This document shows, piece after piece, positions 5,670 to 34,024 of a stretch of DNA of 35,022 bases (positions are counted from its first letter, which is position 1; each line of letters begins with the position of its first letter). Both the position numbers and the translations under genes were made by a program. The notes below the pieces were generated by a model that saw only the letters and a program-made list of their open reading frames with translations, did no database searches and was not told the origin of the DNA. Location: UHGV virus genome UHGV-0182056; one strand, given 5' to 3'. This DNA comes from a virus.

Positions 5670-6185
5670 TCAGAGGCCGAGTGCGTTGCGGTGTGCTTCC
5701 ATCAGGTCCACACCATCCACAATTTCCACCATGTTGATAAGGTCCACTTCATAGAGCACCTCACCATTGATGGTCAGCTTCGCGTAGCTGTTGGTACTGG
5801 TCACTTTGGTGGTGTTGCTTTCGCCCGTCTTCCACTCACCGGAATCCACTTCTTTGTGACGTCCACGCACCACAAGCTCCACGGCCTGCACTTCCCCGGT
5901 ATCGTCACGCTGGATAGAGCCGGTAAAGCGCAACTGGATGCCATCCACCGTGGCTTTGCCCATCTGCTTAAACAGCAGCAGTTCAGTACCACCAATGGAA
6001 AATTCTGTGTCCAGCGCACTGTCATCAAGCCCCAGATCCACATCCACTGCACCCGGCATTCCGCCGCCGCGATACTTCTCATATTTGCGGGTGAATTTCG
6101 GCAGCGTCAGCGACTCAACGATCCCCTGCCAGTTGTTCCCGTCGTTAAACAGGTTCAGGTGTTTTAATTTGCGTGGTAAAGCCAT
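5670..6185 (-). CDS. FII: Tail tube protein gpFII
   Basis: 171 aa, at the P2 position directly after the sheath gene. Confidence 0.85.
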   Translation of the reverse strand: MALPRKLKHLNLFNDGNNWQGIVESLTLPKFTRKYEKYRGGGMPGAVDVDLGLDDSALDTEFSIGGTELLLFKQMGKATVDGIQLRFTGSIQRDDTGEVQAVELVVRGRHKEVDSGEWKTGESNTTKVTSTNSYAKLTINGEVLYEVDLINMVEIVDGVDLMEAHRNALGL

Positions 6186-6194
6186 GTTGTCCCC

Positions 6195-7367
6195 TTACGC
6201 GCTGACCTGGCTGGCGAAATTCACCAGGTACTGATCGGTGATGCGCTGACGCAACATCAGGTTTTCAAGTGGCGGCACTGGCGTGTAGTCGTAGTCGATG
6301 GTGAGTTTTCCGGCTTTCAGAGTATCTTTGTCGTTCACCGACTCATCCAGCCAGCAATCACCACCAATGAGATAGCCCTGACTGACCAGGCTGCGCATTT
6401 TGGCGCGGATACCTTCGATAATGTCGCGGGCCAACGACGGGTTCAGCGGTTTGTCCACCGCCCACATATGCGCTTCTGCCATTGTGTCCATAAGTACCTG
6501 CGCCGTGCGGGTGTAGTTTTCGAAGGCAAAGAGCGGGTCATCACTCAGGCAGCGGGAACCCCAGAAGCGGAAACCGTCTTTGCGGATAAGGGTGGTGACG
6601 TCGCTCTGGTTCAGCAGTCCCGCATCTGTTGCCGTGTCCTGCAGATCCCAGAACACATCAGCAGAAATTCCGGTGACACCGTTCACGCCCACGTTGGACA
6701 GGCTTTTGTGCCATCCGGTCTGCTCATCAATTTTGGCGCGCAGACCAAGCGCACGGGCGGTGGCATATGCCGTTGCTTCGGCATTCAGTACCGTGTCCCA
6801 GCCAGTAAAGTCAGGCCAGATCAGCATCCCTTCGCGCTGGCTGAAGTTTTCACGGTAAGTGATCGCCTCCTGCACTGTCTTGCAGCCATACGCTGACAGG
6901 TAAGCAAACCCACGTAGGCTTTGCGCCACGCTCAGCAACTCAGTCGCAACGGCTTTGTTATCATGGCCTGGCACGCCGAGAATGCGCGGTTTAACGCCGA
7001 GCTGTGACTGGGCAGATAACAGAGCTTTCATGCCTGTTTTTTTACCTTCAGCAGTCACTGCGCCGATGATATTGGTCGTGGTTTCTTCTTCCGTTTCACC
7101 CTGCGGCACACGCACAACAACGGTCACGGGTTTTGCCTGGTCAGCGATGGCATCCAGCGAACGGGCCAGCGTGCCGGACTCACCCGCTTTACCGCTGGCA
7201 GTCAGCACATCAGTGATCAGCACGGGTTTATTAAGAGGAAACATTTTTGCATCGGCATCATCGCCCGTGCAGACCATACCCACGATGGCGGTGCTCACCG
7301 TGGTAATGGATCGGGTGCCTTCGTTGACTTCAACAACGCGCACCCCGTGGTGGTAATCCTGAGCCAT
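6195..7367 (-). CDS. FI: Contractile tail sheath protein gpFI
   Basis: 390 aa, sheath-like sequence, followed by the tube gene. Confidence 0.85.
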
Positions 7368-7443
7368 AGTGGCGAACCTCCTGATTGGATTAGGCTTCGC
7401 CCTATGTTGAAGTGATTGTGCCTGACAAACAGCTAAGCGCAGT

Positions 7444-7461
7444 TGTACCGTTATTCACACA
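7444..7461. promoter_or_regulatory. Candidate Ogr-dependent late promoter element (TGT-N12-ACA dyad) upstream of the FI tail operon
   Basis: TGTACCGTTATTCACACA lies 77-94 bp upstream of the FI start; nearly the same as the dyad in the O-P intergenic region. Confidence 0.5.
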
Positions 7462-7509
7462 AAATGACGGTATTTGTCTGCTTGCAGGGATAATCAAAAT
7501 AATGCTGAT

Positions 7510-8076
7510 TCAGGGGGATTCATTACTCTTATTTGCCGGAAATTTTCTATAAATTGTGGAAACACCCACATCAAAAATCAGTGCAATACGCTGTCTTGAT
7601 TCTCCGGCCTCGAGTAAGCGTCCAATCTGTGCCCACTGTTCGGTAGTCAACTTAGGACGGCGTCCACCTACTCTGCCTTTGGCGCGAGCTGCAGCAAGCC
7701 CCGCCCTGGTACGTTCAACTATCAGTTCGCGTTCCATTTCAGCCAGGGCACCCATGACATGAAAAAAGAAACGGCCCATTGGGGTACTGGTATCAATACT
7801 GTCAGTCAGGCTTCGGAAATTCACACCTCGCTGGCGCAACTCTTCTATCAACGTAACAAGATGCCGCATACTGCGCCCCAACCTGTCCAGCTTCCAGACA
7901 ACCAGCGTGTCTCCTGCCGATAGTGTCCTGAGCAGCTTTTTCAGCCCCGGTCTGTCGGACTTGGTGCCACTGATTTTATCCTCAAAAATCCGCTCACATC
8001 CCGCACAGTTCAGTGCATTGCGTTGCAAATCGGTGTTCTGGTCATTTGTTGACACGCGTACATAGCCAATAAGCAT
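7510..8076 (-). CDS. pin: Serine-recombinase DNA invertase of the Pin/Gin/Cin/Hin family
   Basis: MLIGYVRVSTNDQNTDLQRNAL...LVVWKLDRLGRSM...FFHVMGALAEMEREL closely resembles e14 Pin / Mu Gin as I recall them; gene abuts the left crossover site. Confidence 0.85.
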   Translation of the reverse strand: MLIGYVRVSTNDQNTDLQRNALNCAGCERIFEDKISGTKSDRPGLKKLLRTLSAGDTLVVWKLDRLGRSMRHLVTLIEELRQRGVNFRSLTDSIDTSTPMGRFFFHVMGALAEMERELIVERTRAGLAAARAKGRVGGRRPKLTTEQWAQIGRLLEAGESRQRIALIFDVGVSTIYRKFPANKSNESP

Positions 8077-8131
8077 GATCATCCCCCTGAATAAAAACCG
8101 GAGATGATGCCAGTTAGCCGTTATCTCTGCA

Positions 8132-8157
8132 TTTTCATAAACGTTGGTTTGGGAGAA
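8132..8157. other. Left recombination site (gix/pix-like) of the invertible tail-fibre segment
   Basis: TTTTCATAAACGTTGGTTTGGGAGAA; its outer 15 bp are a perfect inverted repeat of 10037-10051 and the whole resembles the 26-bp gix site as I recall it. Confidence 0.65.
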
Positions 8158-8496
8158 GCGGCCAAATTGCCTGCGATTAGTGGCTCTTTATCATCATCTG
8201 GCTGGATAAAAATCCCTGTTATAGAGGGGAAGTCTTTTATTATCCAATGGGGAAGAATCGGACCTTCTGATAGTAAAACTGGTGTTGCAACAGGAAGTTA
8301 TCCTATTGCTTTTCCAAATTCTGCATTTATGGCATTTATTGCTGAAAAAACCGCAGTATCCACAGGCCCAATAGGTATTAATTCCTGGGGAGTGTCCGAA
8401 CTAACAAAAACAGAATTAAAGGCCATTTGTGCTGCAAGGACTATATCAACTTCAGCCGCAACTGAAACAGGTGATTTTCTGGTACTGGGATATTGA
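8144..8496 (+). CDS. Silent alternative tail-fibre C-terminal cassette (no own start; would be fused to the constant fibre region after inversion)
   Basis: Open frame runs through the left crossover site and encodes ...VGLGEAAKLPAISGS..., sharing the GLGE junction with the active fibre; AT-rich. Confidence 0.6.
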
Positions 8497-8966
8497 GCTT
8501 CCATAAGGATTATAAAATGTCGAGCATAATATACTACAGCTCTATAAATAATGCATTTTACCCTGAGCATTTGAAACAAGAATATATTAAATCTAATTCT
8601 TTTCCAGCAGATGCAAAACCCGTTAAATATTCTGTTTTCGAAGAATTTGCACTTAAACCAGCACCAGAAGGAAAATATAGATGCGTTGGTGAAGATGGAA
8701 TGCCATCATGGGCAGATATTCCACCACCAACACATGAGGAACAGATTGCCGCAGCCGAATTGAAAAAGCAGCAATTGATTAACCTGGTCAACGAATACAT
8801 GAACAGTAAACAATGGCCCGGTAAAGCGGCTATTGGTCGTCTGAAAGGTGAGGAACTGGCGCAATATAATTTGTGGCTGGATTATCTGGACGCACTGGAA
8901 CTGGTTGATACCTCCAGTGCTCCAGATATTGAATGGCCTACGCCTCCAGCAGTTCAGGCCAGATGA
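8493..8966 (+). CDS. Alternative tail-fibre assembly chaperone (Tfa')
   Basis: C-terminus LWLDYLDALELVDTSSAPDIEWP parallels the C-terminus of the active Tfa (LDYIDAVTATDTSTAPDVIWP). Confidence 0.7.
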   Translation: MSFHKDYKMSSIIYYSSINNAFYPEHLKQEYIKSNSFPADAKPVKYSVFEEFALKPAPEGKYRCVGEDGMPSWADIPPPTHEEQIAAAELKKQQLINLVNEYMNSKQWPGKAAIGRLKGEELAQYNLWLDYLDALELVDTSSAPDIEWPTPPAVQAR

Positions 8967-9540
8967 CATCCGGCGCGGTGCTGGTATCTGTTGCCGTCAC
9001 CGCGTCAATGTAATCCAGCACGGCGTTAAGTCGGGTGTTTTCTGTCTGCGTCAGCTTCCGCACGGCCTGTAATTTCAGTTGAATCAGACTGATAGAAGCC
9101 ATTGCAGCATCAATCAGCGACTGGCGCTGTGCTTCTGCCGCTTCTACTGCGGCGCTATGCTGTGCCTCAGTATCGGTCACCCATTTCTCACCATCCCATT
9201 TATCGTATGGCGTTAACGGTGCGAGAGTGGTTGTTTTTTCGGGATAGTCGCCTGGTGCTGTGATTTCTTTGGCATCTCCCGTTTCGGTGTTATAGACAAT
9301 TTCACCGCGATGGTCTGGCACATATTCCCATGAGTTAAAATCTGCTGAGCGGCAGATAGCATAACCAGCTTTATGTGTAACTGGCGCATCTAAACAAGAA
9401 CATGCCGGGATACCGACGCCAACAGCAAGATATTCAGTTGATGTGGAAATATATTCCCGCGTTTCACCATCATAATTATAAACGGTAATATCTCCCGCCT
9501 TTGTGGCGATGAGTTCCTTATTTAATATAGCTTTATCCAT
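8938..9540 (-). CDS. G: Tail-fibre assembly chaperone (gpG-like), currently expressed orientation
   Basis: 200 aa; N-terminal ...ITVYNYDGETREY... typical of this family; start overlaps the fibre stop. Confidence 0.8.
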   Translation of the reverse strand: MDKAILNKELIATKAGDITVYNYDGETREYISTSTEYLAVGVGIPACSCLDAPVTHKAGYAICRSADFNSWEYVPDHRGEIVYNTETGDAKEITAPGDYPEKTTTLAPLTPYDKWDGEKWVTDTEAQHSAAVEAAEAQRQSLIDAAMASISLIQLKLQAVRKLTQTENTRLNAVLDYIDAVTATDTSTAPDVIWPELLEA

Positions 9541-11099
9541 CAGGCAGCCCTCACGATATAATTAAAGGCAATGTTACGGGGTCGATTTTCGTTTGCAGTT
9601 GGAACAATTCTTGAAGCATCAAGGCCAATCACTTTTGGGTAAACAGCGCCGTCTGCTCTTTCTGTCACCATACTTCTGGTTAAGGAGAAATAACTATTGT
9701 TTGTAGAGGGACTCAATGGCACTATGGCCCCCTTAAACGAGCCTGCTGTTTCCCATATTGAATAATTTTCAGTGTTTACAGTTCTGAACTCACCATAGAT
9801 ATTACGTATGGCATCGCCCTGAGCTGATAATATTGCCCTCCCCGTATCCATACCACGTCCGTCATCCCAGCCACGAATAAACTCACCACGTAAATCAGGC
9901 AATTTTTTTGTCGGGTAAGCCTTTGCCAGTTCCGGGTATTCTTCAGCAGAAAATGCCGCACCGTTGCATTTCAGCCAGCCTGTTGGCGGAGTGGCGGAAG
10001 GCCACGGAACAGGCACACCAACGGGTAATGCCGAACCTTCTCCCAAACCAAGGTATGCGAGAAGACCAGCTACATCCTTTCCACTCAAATTAGTCAGCGT
10101 ATTGTCCAGCGGTTGTTTACCTGCCAGTGCATTAAGCATTGTCGTGGCAAAGTTCGGGTCATTCCCCAGCGCCGCCGCCAGTTCGTTCAGTGTATCCAGT
10201 GCCGCAGGTGCAGAACCCACCATTGCCGCTATCGCCGATTTCACAAAAGCCGTAGTGGCAATCTGTGTATTGTTGACCGACTGCGCCGCCGTGGGGGCTG
10301 TTGGCGTTCCGGTGAGTTCCGGACTCAACAGCGGCACTTTCAGTGCCAGCGCATTATTAATGGTGGTACTGAATTTCGGATCATTGTTAATGGCTACGGC
10401 TATTTCTTTCAGCGTGTCCAGCGTGGCTGGCGCACCATTAATCAGGGCTGTCAGTGCCGCCTGAACAAACGCGGTGGTCGCAAGTTGCGTGGTATTATTC
10501 CCCGCCGCTGGCGTCGGCGCTTTGGGGGTTCCGGTAAATATCGGGCTGGCTTTTGGCGCATACTGTGAATGTGGGTCCGCTGCGGCAAGGTGTTTTGCCA
10601 TCAGGTCATCCACATACACCTTCAGCTCCAGTGCCTTATCATCCACATACTTGCGAGTTGCCAGTACTACAGCAGGGTCGATTTTCAGGGTGATATTGTC
10701 CGTACTGCTGGTAATCAGCACCATGCGCACGGTCTGGGTGCGCCCGCTGCCTTCAGCCAGTTGCGGCTTATAGCTTTCCGGGCAGTTGCCCACGGCAATC
10801 AATGCCCCGGACTCATCAAACAGGCCCACTTCACGTATCCACCAACCGCCCTCGTTTTCAGGGATCACCTGTTCAGCAATAATCTGGCTGCTGTTCTGCG
10901 GGTCGATATAGAGCATATTCAGCGCAGCCCGGCGTTTCTCATTTACCAGTGCAGTCTGCTTTGCGTCCGGCGTTGGCAATACTCCGCCACCATCGCCCAC
11001 CGCCATATGGGTAATTTTTAGCGGCACACCGAGCGCGGCGGAACTGGCAAGTTTCGCCGCGCCAATATCCGTCAGCAGGGTATAAAATTTTGTGCTCAT
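9540..11099 (-). CDS. H: Tail fibre protein gpH (constant N-terminal part plus invertible C-terminal part)
   Basis: N-terminus MSTKFYTLLTDIGAAKLA...MAVGDGGG resembles P2 gpH; the C-terminal ~170 aa lie inside the invertible segment. Confidence 0.85.
   Translation of the reverse strand: MSTKFYTLLTDIGAAKLASSAALGVPLKITHMAVGDGGGVLPTPDAKQTALVNEKRRAALNMLYIDPQNSSQIIAEQVIPENEGGWWIREVGLFDESGALIAVGNCPESYKPQLAEGSGRTQTVRMVLITSSTDNITLKIDPAVVLATRKYVDDKALELKVYVDDLMAKHLAAADPHSQYAPKASPIFTGTPKAPTPAAGNNTTQLATTAFVQAALTALINGAPATLDTLKEIAVAINNDPKFSTTINNALALKVPLLSPELTGTPTAPTAAQSVNNTQIATTAFVKSAIAAMVGSAPAALDTLNELAAALGNDPNFATTMLNALAGKQPLDNTLTNLSGKDVAGLLAYLGLGEGSALPVGVPVPWPSATPPTGWLKCNGAAFSAEEYPELAKAYPTKKLPDLRGEFIRGWDDGRGMDTGRAILSAQGDAIRNIYGEFRTVNTENYSIWETAGSFKGAIVPLSPSTNNSYFSLTRSMVTERADGAVYPKVIGLDASRIVPTANENRPRNIAFNYIVRAA
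10038..10063. other. Right recombination site (gix/pix-like), inside the tail-fibre gene at the constant/variable junction
   Basis: TTCTCCCAAACCAAGGTATGCGAGAA, inverted relative to 8132-8157; encodes the shared ...LGLGE... junction. Confidence 0.65.
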
Positions 11100-22350: not shown

Positions 22351-23049
22351 TTATTTGTTTCTTCTTTGTTCACGCCTTGTCTTGGCTTCGATAAGGCGTT
22401 GAGGTTCAGTGTAAAGCCGTTCTAAAAAAAGATAGGTAAAATCTTCAAGATCCTCAGCAGCAGCTTTATCCAAAATACCTTCATGCGCTCCATCATTTCC
22501 GTCATCTTTAACGCATTCAGCTAGTTCCCTTAAAGCTTCAGGCAGTAGATGATTATCAAATAACCACTCCATTCTTAACCCTAGGCTTCTCCTTATTTTT
22601 TGCGCAGGCCCTTGCTCCCCATCAGGAAGAAGTCCTTTTGTGGCATAATCAAGGCAAAGCCTAAACATGGTTGCTGCTGCATTATAACAACCTATAGCCA
22701 AACATTTCGCCCCTTCCTCATATGCACTATTGATATGCTCAGGTAAGAACTCTGGTGGCTCCTCTACTGCTAAGTCTGCCGGTGATATAGGCCTAACAAC
22801 CTCTGCAACTTCCTTTAAGCCGAATATTCCACTTTCCCAATTATAGCCATCTAAAGTTTTATTTTTCGTTAAAGGTCTGCAAAGAAACATTGTCGTTTTA
22901 TGACACTCTCGGCAAACACAATAGACCTCGTACTCGTATGTTTTACCCCCGCCCAATGCATTGTAAACCCTAGTGCAATTCAGCCCATTCACATCAAACG
23001 CTATTTTTTGTGATCCACATCGTGGACAGTCATCCACTAACATAACCAT
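22351..23049 (-). CDS. Accessory protein: N-terminal Cys4 zinc ribbon plus alpha-helical C-terminal domain; possible HEPN/DUF4145-like fold; function unknown
   Basis: 232 aa, inserted between Q and cos where P2 has no gene; CPRCG...CRECH; C-terminal GNDGAH resembles the GN-AAH core I recall for DUF4145, but no Arg at the Rx4-6H position; strong RBS GGAGGAG; AT-rich. Confidence 0.45.
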   Translation of the reverse strand: MVMLVDDCPRCGSQKIAFDVNGLNCTRVYNALGGGKTYEYEVYCVCRECHKTTMFLCRPLTKNKTLDGYNWESGIFGLKEVAEVVRPISPADLAVEEPPEFLPEHINSAYEEGAKCLAIGCYNAAATMFRLCLDYATKGLLPDGEQGPAQKIRRSLGLRMEWLFDNHLLPEALRELAECVKDDGNDGAHEGILDKAAAEDLEDFTYLFLERLYTEPQRLIEAKTRREQRRNK

Positions 23050-23338: not shown

Positions 23339-23950
23339 CTACGTAACCACAGTTAATGTGTGCATCCTGTCTCGAATTGCATCACACGTCTCATCAAAAA
23401 GCTTGGTGATGGTTGTACGGTTCAACTCCGCCTCTTTCCAATAATTTTGCCCGTCAAATTCTGGATCGCTATGCTGAAACGATATTGACTCTGAAAGGCA
23501 TTCCTTCCGGAAACGGTCCAAGATTATATAAACCTCTGGTGAGATGAACGGTTTGTTAGATTCAACACTTGTGACAAAAGTGTTAAATGCATCAAAAAAA
23601 ACTTTCAACCTTCTAAATTTTCTCTCTTCAAATGGTTCGTTGGGGTCAACATGATCCAGCGCAGGCCTCAGCTTAAGCACGCTTTCTCTGGTTTCAAACA
23701 TCGAATTCCAAATGAGACTATATGCTGATAACTCCTTATCAAAATACGCTTTCGTTACATAAACAGAATTGTCTAACTTAGCCTTTATTCTTTCATTAGT
23801 TGCACTCAGTTGTGATTGAAATTCAGCAATATCTTTGTTTAGCCGCGACTTATATCTTTCTAAATAAACTTTCCCGATCCAAACAAATATGCCAGATGCA
23901 ACAAAAGACACCCCACCCAACGAAGCCAGAACTTTAAAGACTAAATCCAT
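23339..23950 (-). CDS. Accessory membrane-anchored protein of unknown function (N-terminal transmembrane helix, coiled-coil, cytoplasmic domain)
   Basis: 203 aa; hydrophobic segment LASLGGVSFVASGIFVWIG near the N-terminus; AT-rich; lies where P2 carries old/tin. Confidence 0.5.
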   Translation of the reverse strand: MDLVFKVLASLGGVSFVASGIFVWIGKVYLERYKSRLNKDIAEFQSQLSATNERIKAKLDNSVYVTKAYFDKELSAYSLIWNSMFETRESVLKLRPALDHVDPNEPFEERKFRRLKVFFDAFNTFVTSVESNKPFISPEVYIILDRFRKECLSESISFQHSDPEFDGQNYWKEAELNRTTITKLFDETCDAIRDRMHTLTVVT

Positions 23951-23998: not shown

Positions 23999-24259
23999 TT
24001 AATCAAACAGGGGATAATTCGCGTCAACCTCATCACTTCTCTGCTCTACCCTAGTGACTTCCATCAAAAACCCCAGGCCGTCATATAGCGAAACGGGGAA
24101 TTCCAGCTCAAGCCAGAAGCAGTCTTCATAGATGCGGCCCAACCAAAAACCTCCGCCACACTCCTTTGGGCGTTGAAAGAAGACCCAGTCGCCAAGGGTA
24201 AACCGTTCCAGCACCTGGCCCCGATAAATAATCTGGTGATTACTGTCTTTTTTACCCAT
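23999..24259 (-). CDS. Accessory small protein of unknown function
   Basis: Track ORF 23999..24310 begins at a TTG; likely ATG start at MGKKDSNHQ; no family recognised. Confidence 0.4.
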   Translation of the reverse strand: MGKKDSNHQIIYRGQVLERFTLGDWVFFQRPKECGGGFWLGRIYEDCFWLELEFPVSLYDGLGFLMEVTRVEQRSDEVDANYPLFD

Positions 24260-24332
24260 GGCTAACGCCTCGCTACTCTCGTTGTTCAACCTTGCTGACG
24301 TCAGATTCAAGTTCTTACATCAGGAACGTTCC

Positions 24333-30745: not shown

Positions 30746-31294
30746 ATGAGAGTTTTAGTCACAGGCGTATTAATTTTGTCATCATTTGCTGCAATTGCAG
30801 CACCTGAACAATTCAAAAACATTAATGACTTGATGGAAAACTATAACGATTATCCAACTTATACCGTAGACGGTAAGGATTTTCCATCTTTCAAAATTTT
30901 ATCTGAAAAGCCTTTACACATCCAAATCTCGCCGCGCACTTTATCAGGGAGTTCAACGAAAGATATTAAGTACGAATCAGACAGGGCAGCCATTTACGCA
31001 GCATATCGTACTTTGTATCAAACGCCTGCAGACAGGGTTAAAGTCACAGTATTACCTATTTCAATTACCCCCCAGCCTCGGAAGGTAGAGTATATGACGG
31101 AATATAAATATGATTTTAGCATTACAAAAAAGCAGGCAATAAATTTACTCCGCAGACACAGCAATATATTGAATGAAGACCAGTTAATGTCCGCCAATGG
31201 TGAATGGAGCAAAGCATTTGAAAAGTGCTGTTACCTTGAAGAAGGTAAGCCCGGTTTATCAATATTTGCTAAAGAGTTAATCACGCAAAGGTAA
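30746..31294 (+). CDS. Moron: secreted/periplasmic protein of unknown function, apparently in the lysogenic cI-int operon
   Basis: 182 aa with N-terminal signal peptide MRVLVTGVLILSSFAAIAAP; AT-rich; stop 5 bp before the int start. Confidence 0.55.
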   Translation: MRVLVTGVLILSSFAAIAAPEQFKNINDLMENYNDYPTYTVDGKDFPSFKILSEKPLHIQISPRTLSGSSTKDIKYESDRAAIYAAYRTLYQTPADRVKVTVLPISITPQPRKVEYMTEYKYDFSITKKQAINLLRRHSNILNEDQLMSANGEWSKAFEKCCYLEEGKPGLSIFAKELITQR

Positions 31295-31299
31295 AAAAC

Positions 31300-32313
31300 G
31301 TGGCAGTAACAAAACTCGCTAATGGTAAGTGGCAGGCTCAGGTCTTCCCCAACGGTAGGGATGGGCGGCGTGTACGCCGCCTATTTGCAACTAAAGGGGA
31401 AGCTCTGGCATTTGAGCGATATATAAAAGACCAAACAATTGATAAGCCTTGGCTTGGTGAAAAAAAAGATAAGCGACGTGTTATTGACCTTGTTGATACG
31501 TGGTTTAATGCACACGGTATTACGTTGTCTGATGGTCAGAAAAGAAAAGATACGATGGAGTTTGCTTGCATAGCAATGGGTAACCCTCTTGCGAGTGAGT
31601 TTAATGCGAAATTGTTTGCCAGCTATCGTGAGCAACGTTTAAGCGGAAAAATTACTCGTTCCAACAGAGTAAAAGCAGTCACACCACGAACTGTGAATTT
31701 AGAACTGGCTTACTTCCGCGCAATGTTTAATGAATTGAAGCGTCTGGATGATTGGATGGCTCCTAATCCACTCGAAAATATTCGTGAATTCAAAATTGAT
31801 GAAGCGGAGTTGTCTTGGTTGACAGTAGAAGAGGTAAAAGTGCTTCTTGCTGAGTGCGAAAAAAGCAGAGCTAAAGACCTGTCGATGATCGTACAAATTT
31901 GTCTGGCCACTGGTGCTCGTTGGGGTGAGGCAGAATCCCTGTCTGGCATGCAAATCAGTCCCGGGAAGATCACCTTCACCAAAACAAAGGGAAAAAAGAA
32001 CAGAACTGTTCCAATAAGTGATGAACTATACGAAATGCTTCCACGCATCAGAACATCAAAACCTCTGTTTAAGCCATGCTACTCCGCATTCAGAACTGCA
32101 ATAAAAAGGGCCAAAATTGAATTACCTGATGGCCAGCTTTCGCATGTTCTTCGACACACTTTCGCAAGCCACTTTATGATGGGGGGGGGCAACATTCTTG
32201 TACTCCAACGCATCCTTGGACATACAGATATTAAGGTAACGATGCGCTACGCACATTTTTCCCCTGACCATCTGACAGAAGCAGTTGAGTTAAATCCTTT
32301 AAATCATCTTTAA
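31300..32313 (+). CDS. int: Tyrosine integrase (P2/186 Int family)
   Basis: 337 aa; C-terminal HVLRHTFASH...LGHTDIKVTMRYAHF catalytic region; GTG start. Confidence 0.9.
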   Translation: MAVTKLANGKWQAQVFPNGRDGRRVRRLFATKGEALAFERYIKDQTIDKPWLGEKKDKRRVIDLVDTWFNAHGITLSDGQKRKDTMEFACIAMGNPLASEFNAKLFASYREQRLSGKITRSNRVKAVTPRTVNLELAYFRAMFNELKRLDDWMAPNPLENIREFKIDEAELSWLTVEEVKVLLAECEKSRAKDLSMIVQICLATGARWGEAESLSGMQISPGKITFTKTKGKKNRTVPISDELYEMLPRIRTSKPLFKPCYSAFRTAIKRAKIELPDGQLSHVLRHTFASHFMMGGGNILVLQRILGHTDIKVTMRYAHFSPDHLTEAVELNPLNHL

Positions 32314-32346
32314 CTAAAAAAAGGGCGATTTCAACGCCCTTTTTTA
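32314..32346. terminator. Bidirectional terminator between int and the convergent cargo gene
   Basis: A-run, hairpin AGGGCG-ATTTCAA-CGCCCT, T-run. Confidence 0.6.
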
Positions 32347-32350
32347 TCAA

Positions 32351-33703
32351 TCAATCAAAAAAATCCTTTTTGAAATCGCTACTACTAGATAATCCAGGTC
32401 TTATTTTTTCAATAACATCTTGACAAGCCGCAGGTTGATCATCAAGTGCCTTGGACGCTTTTTCCTTTATTTTTGGTATATTATTAAACCTACCTTTCAT
32501 CATTCCATCCGGCCCATACGCACCCCAAATACCTGCAGCGCAGATATTCACTATCAATTCAAAACATTCAAGATCATTCATTAATAAAGCAATATCTTTA
32601 TCATAAACGCTAGCACTTCTAGCGAATGAGTTCGCCTCATCAAATGTTGAAGATCCTGCTTTTGAAAAAATATTACTAATTAATTTAGCTCTAGCCCATT
32701 CTTTATGCTTCACAACATTCATCAATACAGGGCTGAATTTATACTTATTCAACACATCATCAATATTATTCATAAAAAACTTATCTAATACAGCCTTGTC
32801 CAATGCCAGAAGACTTCTTACTATTTGAACAGGATGTCTCAAATATGTATGTTGATCTGCTGTACTTGTAGACGAAATTGTACTTTCAAACATTTTATTA
32901 ATTCTTAAATAAAATATATCATCTAAATCCTTTATCAAATTTGAATTTGTTGAAATTGACTCCATTAAAAACTTAGTTTTATTTTCATCTGAACTGCACT
33001 CCTCTAAAACCTGTTTTTTTATTTGTTGAAGAACTTGATCATTCAAAGGATTACTCGACAGTCCAAGAAGATATCTCTTAGCATTAACTTGTATCTGTTC
33101 GTTCGGATTATCAAGAGATTGGAGTAGTTTTTTTAATAGATAGGAGTAACCATCATGATGAAGATTCTTTACACCTTCATTTACTACTGTAGCATGATCT
33201 TGTATGTTTGTTGTAGGAAATAAATATGCATTTGTTAATTTTGATATAATTTCATCTGCAACTTGTGTTGTAGAAAGAATTGGTTTTGAAAGGAATCTGC
33301 CAATTGTTTCTGAAAAGACATATCTTGCTTCTTCGGCTGTTGGTTTGTGACCGGAAGGATGCGCTGCTTTGTTTCTAAGAGTTTTCAATACGGTTAGAAA
33401 ATCAGCATCTATATCAGTAATTATTTTTTCAGATTTTAAGCGATTCAGCAAATCATTCTCAAAAACCTTTTGCTCTTCCCTTTTTTTATTTATCTCTGCA
33501 AATATGGCCCTTGCAACTTTATTTGTCGATGCCATTCCATTTAGTTTTTTTAATAAATCTTCAAATATAGCGATAAAAGATAAAACAACACATGCGCGAT
33601 GAGCACCTGTCATATAGCAAGTTAGTGCTTCGCGCATATACTCCTTAAGCTCTACATCAACAATATCACTTATAAGTTCTTCCATGTCCCTCAAACTTGA
33701 CAT
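32351..33703 (-). CDS. Accessory protein: N-terminal HEPN-like (DUF4145-like) domain with an Rx4H motif plus a large C-terminal helical domain; candidate single-gene abortive-infection/defence protein
   Basis: 450 aa, strongly AT-rich, between int and attR; ...LTVLKTLRNKAAHPSGH... gives R-x4-H; RBS GAGGGG upstream. Confidence 0.5.
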   Translation of the reverse strand: MSSLRDMEELISDIVDVELKEYMREALTCYMTGAHRACVVLSFIAIFEDLLKKLNGMASTNKVARAIFAEINKKREEQKVFENDLLNRLKSEKIITDIDADFLTVLKTLRNKAAHPSGHKPTAEEARYVFSETIGRFLSKPILSTTQVADEIISKLTNAYLFPTTNIQDHATVVNEGVKNLHHDGYSYLLKKLLQSLDNPNEQIQVNAKRYLLGLSSNPLNDQVLQQIKKQVLEECSSDENKTKFLMESISTNSNLIKDLDDIFYLRINKMFESTISSTSTADQHTYLRHPVQIVRSLLALDKAVLDKFFMNNIDDVLNKYKFSPVLMNVVKHKEWARAKLISNIFSKAGSSTFDEANSFARSASVYDKDIALLMNDLECFELIVNICAAGIWGAYGPDGMMKGRFNNIPKIKEKASKALDDQPAACQDVIEKIRPGLSSSSDFKKDFFD

Positions 33704-33742
33704 ACTAACCCCTCATTTGGTTCTTTAAAAATTCCATCATAC

Positions 33743-33760
33743 CATACAAATGTTTGTATG
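33743..33760. promoter_or_regulatory. 8-2-8 perfect dyad (CATACAAA TG TTTGTATG) in the promoter region of the 450-aa cargo gene; candidate operator
   Basis: Perfect inverted repeat about 40 bp upstream of the start codon. Confidence 0.35.
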
Positions 33761-33854
33761 CTTTATTGGCAAAGTTTATTGTAACTTTAATGTCAAGCCA
33801 AATATGAGCATATCATCAGGAGGATGTTTTTCATCTCATGTAAGCGTTAGACGT

Positions 33855-33887
33855 AGGTAGCAAAATGGCAGCAAAATGGCAGCAAAA
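33855..33887 (+). repeat. Three tandem 11-bp repeats (GGTAGCAAAA TGGCAGCAAAA TGGCAGCAAAA); candidate integrase arm-type sites at the attR side
   Basis: Same 11-mer as at 269-290, same orientation. Confidence 0.45.
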
Positions 33888-33977: not shown

Positions 33978-34024
33978 GACTCATAATCGCTTGGTCGCTG
34001 GTTCAAGTCCAGCAGGGGCCACCA
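33978..34024 (+). repeat. attR core: truncated 3' tRNA copy (47 bp), identical to 154-200
   Basis: Exact repeat; upstream tRNA sequence is absent, so not a second tRNA gene. Confidence 0.85.

Follow-up and report, generated by a model that had tools for sequence, protein, structure and literature searches.

The window analysed here, the whole 35,022-nucleotide stretch of the virus genome UHGV-0182056, is a 186/P2-like Escherichia coli prophage of about 33.8 kb, integrated in the 3′ end of a tRNA gene next to nfeF/yqjH. Between the integrase gene (int) of this prophage and its right-hand attachment (att) core lies a single gene for a protein of 450 amino acids (aa). This gene is likely to be a prophage moron that encodes an abortive-infection defense nuclease of the HEPN superfamily, a distant homologue of DARNA (originally PD-T7-3) that is activated by a phage cue. 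The effector half of this reading, a HEPN domain with R110 and H115 that is expected to dimerize, is well supported; the trigger half we infer from the comparison with DARNA. The features of the protein are the following.

32351–33703, minus strand: coding sequence of the 450-aa DARNA-like HEPN plus alpha-solenoid protein, with an ATG start and the stop codon at 32351–32353 (list of open reading frames, PADLOC, AF2)
33269–33703, minus strand: seven-helix HEPN domain at the N-terminus, spanning aa 1 to about 145
33347–33376, minus strand: catalytic block R110-N-K-A-A-H115-P-S-G-H119 (R-x4-H), which aligns with R117/H122 of DARNA
32870–33268, minus strand: proximal helical scaffold, aa 146–278, homologous to the proximal part of the DARNA C-terminal domain
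32354–32869, minus strand: distal helical domain, aa 279–450, which varies most within the protein and is its putative sensor head
32630–32653, minus strand: conserved motif S351-S-T-F354-D-E-A357-N358, collinear with S365-x-x-F368-x-x-A371-D372, which contacts ssDNA in DARNA

The putative HEPN nuclease and its relationship to DARNA

Features by which members of the HEPN superfamily are recognized include the R-x4-6-H motif, in which the arginine is typically followed by a polar residue, and metal-independent RNase activity at a dimer interface. An earlier, sequence-only reading of the window had pointed to an R-x4-H motif in the N-terminal part of the protein and proposed an Abi-like effector, to be checked by profile search, structure prediction and a scan for defense systems. 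The motif (LTVLKTLRNKAAHPSGH) is indeed present, and the arginine is followed by a polar residue (R110-N-K-A-A-H115). Moreover, the block R110-N-K-x-A-H115-P-S-G-H119 is invariant in 117 relatives, with R, N, K, H, P, S, G and H each conserved at 100%. The effector proposal is supported and can now be sharpened to a named relative: Pfam DUF4145 (PF13643, HEPN superfamily) matches aa 74–130 above its gathering score, albeit by a small margin (25.0 bits vs. a cut-off of 23.1, E 2e-5); the AF2 model is all-alpha (pLDDT 90.8), with a seven-helix N-terminal domain and the four-helix up-and-down core of the HEPN fold; and the PADLOC model for PD-T7-3 (PDLC04108) matches the protein with an E-value of 2.9e-16 (57.7 bits, model positions 5–364 of 432), a significant match that nevertheless falls well outside the core family. 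The precomputed Pfam tag for the family of the window protein is PF27235 (“AF_1680”), on which a literature search found nothing relevant; a relative that belongs to PF27235 scores 53.9 bits on the PD-T7-3 model. Searches of NCBIfam and PHROGs yielded noise only (GrpE, E 0.056; phrog_9643, E 0.038).

The source from which PD-T7-3 (RCP48690.1) was selected is E. coli ECOR30, and its annotation was “HEPN” (Vassallo et al. 2022); the protein has since been renamed DARNA and dissected (PDB 9tra–9tre; bioRxiv 10.64898/2026.02.22.705581). According to the latter work, DARNA combines an N-terminal HEPN domain (catalytic R117/H122) with a C-terminal helical tip that reads “CT” in single-stranded DNA (ssDNA) via F368, D372, N402, Q403, Y405, W406 and N408, such that F368 provides base stacking, D372 reads cytosine and Q403 reads thymine; its basic residues K69, R98, K201 and K204 bind RNA, and its active form is a dodecamer that depends on the inter-hexamer residues F6, N33 and E347. 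Triggered by ssDNA presented by SSB, the phage protein that binds such DNA, DARNA promiscuously cuts tRNA anticodon loops, which results in abortive infection, and it acts alone against unrelated lytic phages (bioRxiv 10.64898/2026.02.22.705581).

The comparison was made through a proxy for DARNA, P0121 (455 aa), which was retrieved with a fragment of the PDB entry “Dandelion” as the query and carries all 16 published functional residues. The profile of the window family matches Dandelion (9wxf; 460 aa, 12 chains) with an E-value of 1.2e-10, and in the comparison of Dandelion with DARNA all seven checkable functional residues agree, with a numbering offset of +5. Judging from these residues, 9wxf and 9wx2 (“Dandelion” and “Dandelion-hepn”) are apparently the same protein as DARNA/PD-T7-3 under another name. 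A phmmer search of the PDB sequences retrieved only the Dandelion HEPN fragment, with 9tra–9tre absent under the DARNA name; a literature search for “Dandelion” together with HEPN found nothing relevant; and Foldseek against a PDB library without DARNA and Dandelion gave only weak matches to designed armadillo proteins and importins (E > 3e-3, TM about 0.3).

At the level of pairwise sequence comparison, the BLAST match between the window protein and the DARNA proxy is confined to the HEPN region (24% identity over 173 aa, E 1e-8). Alignment of the family profiles with hhalign extends the homology past the HEPN domain and into the proximal half of the solenoid (window aa 6–278 vs. DARNA 7–296; probability 98.1–98.3%, E 1e-13 to 2e-14). 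Both proteins are single chains of similar size (450 and about 455 aa) with an N-terminal HEPN domain and an all-alpha, Pds5/HEAT-like C-terminal domain, both have a proline directly after the R-x4-H motif (RNKAAHPSGH in the window protein vs. RHLSAHP in DARNA), neither has a partner gene, and the helix topology is collinear over the whole length. They differ in their Pfam assignments, PF27235 and DUF4145 for the window family and none for DARNA.

In the distal domain, the best local match is GSSTFDEAN of the window protein against NSADFERAD of DARNA. This SxxFxxA[N/D] motif is 94–99% conserved in both families (in the 117 relatives of the window protein, S 94%, F/Y 96%, A 99% and N 99%) and occupies collinear positions, and in the AF2 models of both proteins a serine loop of four residues leads into a helix that begins with the aromatic residue of the motif. 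A profile comparison restricted to the distal 170 aa is not significant (E 0.027, 9 columns), so that homology of the distal domains is not claimed from sequence, but only the shared motif and the collinear topology.

The prophage junction, expression signals and distribution of the gene

The following features frame the gene.

125–200: tRNA with a CAT anticodon, the 3′ end of which is the att core
154–200 (tRNA 3′ end) and 33978–34024 (plus strand, int-proximal): exact copies of the 47-bp att core (repeat D1)
31300–32313, plus strand: tyrosine integrase of the 186-like prophage (annotated phage integrase; context)
32317–32345, both strands: bidirectional intrinsic terminator common to int and the cargo gene, a hairpin with T-runs on both strands
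33709–33714, minus strand: Shine-Dalgarno sequence GAGGGG, 5 nt before the ATG, by sequence
33736–33744, minus strand: putative extended −10 element TGgTATGAT, by sequence, not called by the consensus scan
33743–33760: perfect 8-2-8 dyad CATACAAA-NN-TTTGTATG, overlapping the putative promoter
33855–33887: three 11-bp direct repeats of the TGGCAGCAAAA type (repeat family D2), between the cargo gene and the att core
269–290: two further 11-bp D2 repeats on the ogr side, beyond the other att core

The anatomy of the locus described in the sequence-only reading, namely an AT-rich minus-strand gene between int and a right-hand att site, with a bidirectional terminator, a ribosome-binding site of its own and an upstream 8-2-8 dyad, stands in every element. 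The att duplication is real, the gene is the sole long open reading frame (ORF) between int and the right-hand core and is convergent with int, and its GC content is 0.28–0.36 vs. about 0.45–0.56 in the neighboring phage genes and 0.50–0.60 in the host flank. The integrase is 60% identical to that of phage 186 and 85% identical to that of Klebsiella phage ST13-OXA48phi12.1. The left end of the prophage consists of the att core, an Ogr/B-like zinc finger and gpD, with no cargo there. The 3+2 layout of the 11-bp repeats mirrors the arrangement annotated in phage 186; they are probable arm-type sites of the integrase, and given their position between the gene and the core, the gene would lie just outside the functional attP. 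RefSeq labels the gene “hypothetical” or “DUF4145 domain-containing” (plain “hypothetical protein” in the second genome) and, in one genome (NZ_CM148319.1, 6001–7335 of the extracted locus), places the start 18 nt downstream (444 aa; the difference is window 33686–33703). The 450-aa start is preferred because L4 and D6 are conserved in the family and because of the spacing from the Shine-Dalgarno sequence.

The terminator is a GC stem with A/T runs on either side; it lies in the 37 bp that separate the stop codons of the two convergent genes and has folding free energies of −14.6 kcal/mol on the plus strand and −17.7 kcal/mol on the minus strand (z −5.6 and −5.0; none of 200 shuffled sequences folds as well). 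A simple consensus scan for promoters and terminators missed this hairpin and called no convincing promoter, and the promoter was assigned by eye. A purine-rich Shine-Dalgarno sequence is kept in five of five homologous loci, and TATGAT in those of E. coli, Enterobacter and Salmonella. Within the window, the dyad has a single copy (0.03 expected by chance) and is identical solely in the Enterobacter locus, being degenerate or absent in the remaining homologous loci; with no second copy and conservation in just one other locus, it was rejected as an operator, and no regulator is assigned. Separately, a perfect TTGACA is found upstream of the gene (33791–33796, minus strand), with no acceptable −10 at 16–18 bp.

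The gene is accessory. It occurs in two of the 5,426 complete E. coli genomes, the linked integrase being equally rare, and tblastn found no match to the protein in 50,697 phage records, although 313 of these encode a related integrase. The sequence-only reading had named core status in related phages as the finding that would speak against a cargo gene, and had proposed a comparison of the int-attR interval; this interval varies, holding only the 83-aa Orf69 in phage 186 and nothing in the Klebsiella phage with the 85%-identical integrase. None of the 313 sequenced related phages carries the gene, which therefore has no core phage role, and a role in integration or excision was rejected given that related phages lack the gene. 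Absence from related phages, atypical GC content, a Shine-Dalgarno sequence, putative promoter and terminator of its own, and a variable junction together are what characterizes moron cargo.

The wider family is associated with mobile elements and defense genes. With an E-value limit of 1e-3, an exhaustive HMMER scan retrieved 832 representatives of clusters, and with a limit of 1e-30 it retrieved 104; some 90 of these are full-length proteins of ~450 aa, and a tail of 490–555-aa representatives has only the N-terminal part in common with the window protein. In Salmonella (at the same nfeF site), Pantoea and Edwardsiella, 186-like prophages have relatives with 72–92% identity in the stretch from int to the host flank, and a Citrobacter copy (39% identical) again follows int. 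In Enterobacter quasiroggenkampii (6001–9820 of the extracted locus), a 92%-identical homologue is located not on the int side of attP but on the opposite one, behind ogr, and is followed by an 88-aa ORF and a gene for an AIPR-domain (abortive infection) protein, and therefore looks like part of a small defense cluster at the prophage end. Distant copies adjoin DarT/NADAR in Pseudomonas, SLATT/GAP1/DO-GTPase/GASH in Vibrio, and an OLD-like TOPRIM ATPase with SymE in Burkholderia, and full-length copies at 32% identity are present on a few plasmids. Klebsiella IncFIA/IncR plasmids encode a 446-aa protein (motif MRNKASHPTDH) that has only aa 1–230 in common with the window protein (34% identity over 230 aa). 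In K. pneumoniae pKp2177_2 (WP_038992700.1, 2998–4338 of the extracted locus) it is encoded directly downstream of the replication-initiation gene, with the HEPN domain and the proximal scaffold kept and the distal C-terminus unrelated, and it appears, from this pattern of similarity, to represent a third, plasmid-borne clade of the HEPN-scaffold architecture.

A proposed mechanism and its alternatives

These findings suggest the following scheme. A 186-like temperate phage would have acquired a self-contained defense gene horizontally, at a site flanked by int and the P-arm of attP. In the lysogen, it is probably transcribed from its own promoter, the bidirectional terminator insulating it from the cI-int transcript. 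The HEPN domain (R110/H115) would dimerize into a composite active site, and the HEAT-like alpha-solenoid fused to it would be expected to act as the infection sensor through its distal end. If it works as DARNA does, the protein would be inactive before a phage-specific cue, most likely single-stranded nucleic acid exposed in phage replication, switches the RNase on. Once active, the RNase would cleave tRNA or other RNA of the cell, halt translation and abort the infection, an outcome that would shield both the lysogen population and the prophage.

Several observations weigh against this scheme. On the PD-T7-3 model, the window protein reaches 57.7 bits vs. 545.8 for true DARNA, and, as noted above, the distal profile comparison falls short of significance. 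The thymine-reading Q403 and R407 of DARNA (99% conserved in the DARNA family) are absent from the window protein. The residues on which dodecamer formation depends are not retained either: in the alignment, R5 (T/R/K across the family) stands opposite F6 and T32 (A/T) opposite N33, and E347 falls in an unalignable region. The RNA-binding K69, R98 and K201 have no exact counterparts, K69 being aligned with A66 beside a basic residue (R/K65, 96% basic), R98 falling in a gap near K90/K93, and K201 aligning with Y188; K204 aligns with K191, beside K192 (95% K). True DARNA genes are lone insertions among housekeeping genes, whereas the window family is found at prophage int-att junctions or in defense neighborhoods. 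The promoter is a putative one, read from the DNA sequence alone, and the dyad is poorly conserved. Finally, the DARNA-like role proposed for the window family as such rests on its likeness to DARNA.

The residues that read “CT” in DARNA are mostly replaced. F368 alone is retained, as F354 within the shared SxxFxxA; D372 corresponds to a near-invariant asparagine (N358, 99% N), the NxQxYWR element of DARNA is replaced by A[AG]xWGA[FYW], N408 has no counterpart, and W406 finds just a loose match in W393, a position that is W in 47% of family members. Given the low PADLOC score, the D372 to Asn replacement, the replaced NxQxYWR element and the changed interface residues, the window family is to be regarded as a sister family and not as DARNA proper. 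Given N358 and the lack of counterparts of Q403, R407 and N408, a trigger specificity other than the “CT” of DARNA is to be expected, whereas the retained SxxFxxA[N/D] pocket argues for recognition of a nucleobase.

The main alternative, to which we assign a minor but appreciable probability, is that the protein is a HEPN abortive-infection RNase whose distal domain senses something other than ssDNA, such as a phage protein, RNA or another nucleic-acid structure, in which case the DARNA mechanism would transfer for the effector half only. The loss of the “CT”-reading residues fits this alternative, as do the lack of a significant DARNA profile match in the distal domain, the variability of that region, the highest in the protein, and the existence of relatives, namely the Klebsiella plasmid protein and the 490–555-aa representatives, that keep the HEPN domain and the scaffold with unrelated tails. 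What speaks against it, and for a retained nucleobase-binding pocket, is the SxxFxxA[N/D] motif, with the F368 and D372 sites, at collinear positions and with the same helix-start geometry in both families.

A toxin that stabilizes the prophage or excludes superinfecting phages, triggered for instance by prophage loss or by related P2/186-type phages only, appears improbable: no antitoxin ORF or known RNA antitoxin was found at the locus (in an Rfam scan, nothing came near the gathering scores), distant relatives are encoded outside prophages, beside defense genes, and DARNA, the homologue that has been validated, needs no partner to act against unrelated lytic phages. Still less credible is a protein whose HEPN fold is non-catalytic and serves the phage in regulation or structure, similar to MtlR or the substrate-binding subunits of nucleotidyltransferases, considering that the R-x4-H dyad, like the residues around it, shows 100% conservation in 117 diverse relatives and that the gene is missing from all 313 related phages and has a GC content foreign to the prophage. 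Both possibilities are unlikely in view of the lack of an antitoxin or RNA partner, the invariance of the motif and the accessory status of the gene.

Other cargo of the prophage and comparison with known systems

Apart from the DARNA-like gene, the prophage contains a second HEPN-type candidate (22351–23049, minus strand; 232 aa), in which an N-terminal zinc ribbon (CPRCG...CVCRECH) is followed by DUF4145 (30.3 bits vs. a cut-off of 23.1). This protein shows a weak match (E 1.2e-6) to the PADLOC model of PD-T7-4 (Zn-finger HEPN, RAZR) and has, by eye, a lysine at the canonical arginine position (VKDDGNDGAH). It is encoded between a portal-like gene and the DinI/gpA genes, that is, in the classic P2 old/tin cargo slot. 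Two ORFs of the same cos-proximal cargo region, 23339–23950 (minus strand, 203 aa) and 23999–24310 (minus strand, 103 aa), belong to no Pfam or PADLOC family and might be partners of the zinc-ribbon/DUF4145 gene or separate cargo. Elsewhere in the prophage, a serine resolvase/invertase gene (7510–8082, minus strand) adjoins oppositely oriented cassettes for a tail-fiber C-terminus and tail-fiber assembly (8104–8966, plus strand), and by this arrangement the region 7510–8966 looks like a Cin/Gin-type host-range inversion switch. Between cI and int, a 182-aa ORF (30746–31294, plus strand) has a signal-peptide-like N-terminus and no family match; in three related prophages (L003, L008 and L007) the same position holds an unrelated 297–299-aa ORF or nothing, which makes the cI-int interval a further variable slot.

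HEPN Abi proteins are common, and P2-like prophages are known to carry defense genes. The R-x4-6-H RNase effector proposed for the window protein is shared with PrrC/RloC, ApeA, HepS, the AbiF/AbiD Abi_2 family, PD-T4-5 and PD-T7-4/RAZR. These stand-alone HEPN nucleases are activated by infection, with translation shutdown as the outcome, as would be the case for the window protein, but differ in their sensor or regulatory modules (for example ABC ATPase, RNA antitoxin or zinc finger), and in the searches of Pfam, PADLOC and NCBIfam with the window protein none of the other stand-alone systems gave a score. BxaP (ORF376) of Akkermansia muciniphila, compared here by its published description only, has an N-terminal DUF4145 (HEPN) domain and a HEAT-like C-terminus and is structurally similar to PD-T7-3; as a lone gene it suffices against T4, with Abi-like behavior, and it differs in being located inside BREX type 3 and type I restriction-modification loci of distant phyla (Duan et al. 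2024, PMC10799925).

By the comparisons of its sequence, the gene described here belongs to a distinct DARNA-related family with a divergent putative sensor head, and the prophage slot that the gene occupies does not normally figure among the P2 hotspots. Somewhat short of calling it probable, we propose that this sister family of DARNA, about 90 clusters at 50% identity, has kept the nuclease and the scaffold and re-tuned the nucleobase-reading head to sense another signature or trigger. If this is true, HEPN-solenoid proteins would be a modular sensor family in which the tips are swapped or diversified, as the plasmid-borne and ~500-aa relatives suggest. DARNA is among the few defense proteins with an understood trigger, and a sister family offers a ready-made comparison: the fixed Asp-to-Asn change in the pocket, together with the modular tails, gives a handle on how DARNA-type sensors encode specificity, and the comparison could tell, in addition, whether proteins of the HEPN-solenoid architecture generally assemble into dodecamers.

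The cargo hotspots of P2-family prophages are reportedly, in the 2022 work of Rousset et al., the old/tin region and the Z/fun region. The locus resembles these hotspots in carrying variable, composition-distinct defense cargo but lies at the int-attP junction, outside the two classic P2 hotspots, and presents this junction of 186-like prophages as a slot for defense cargo.
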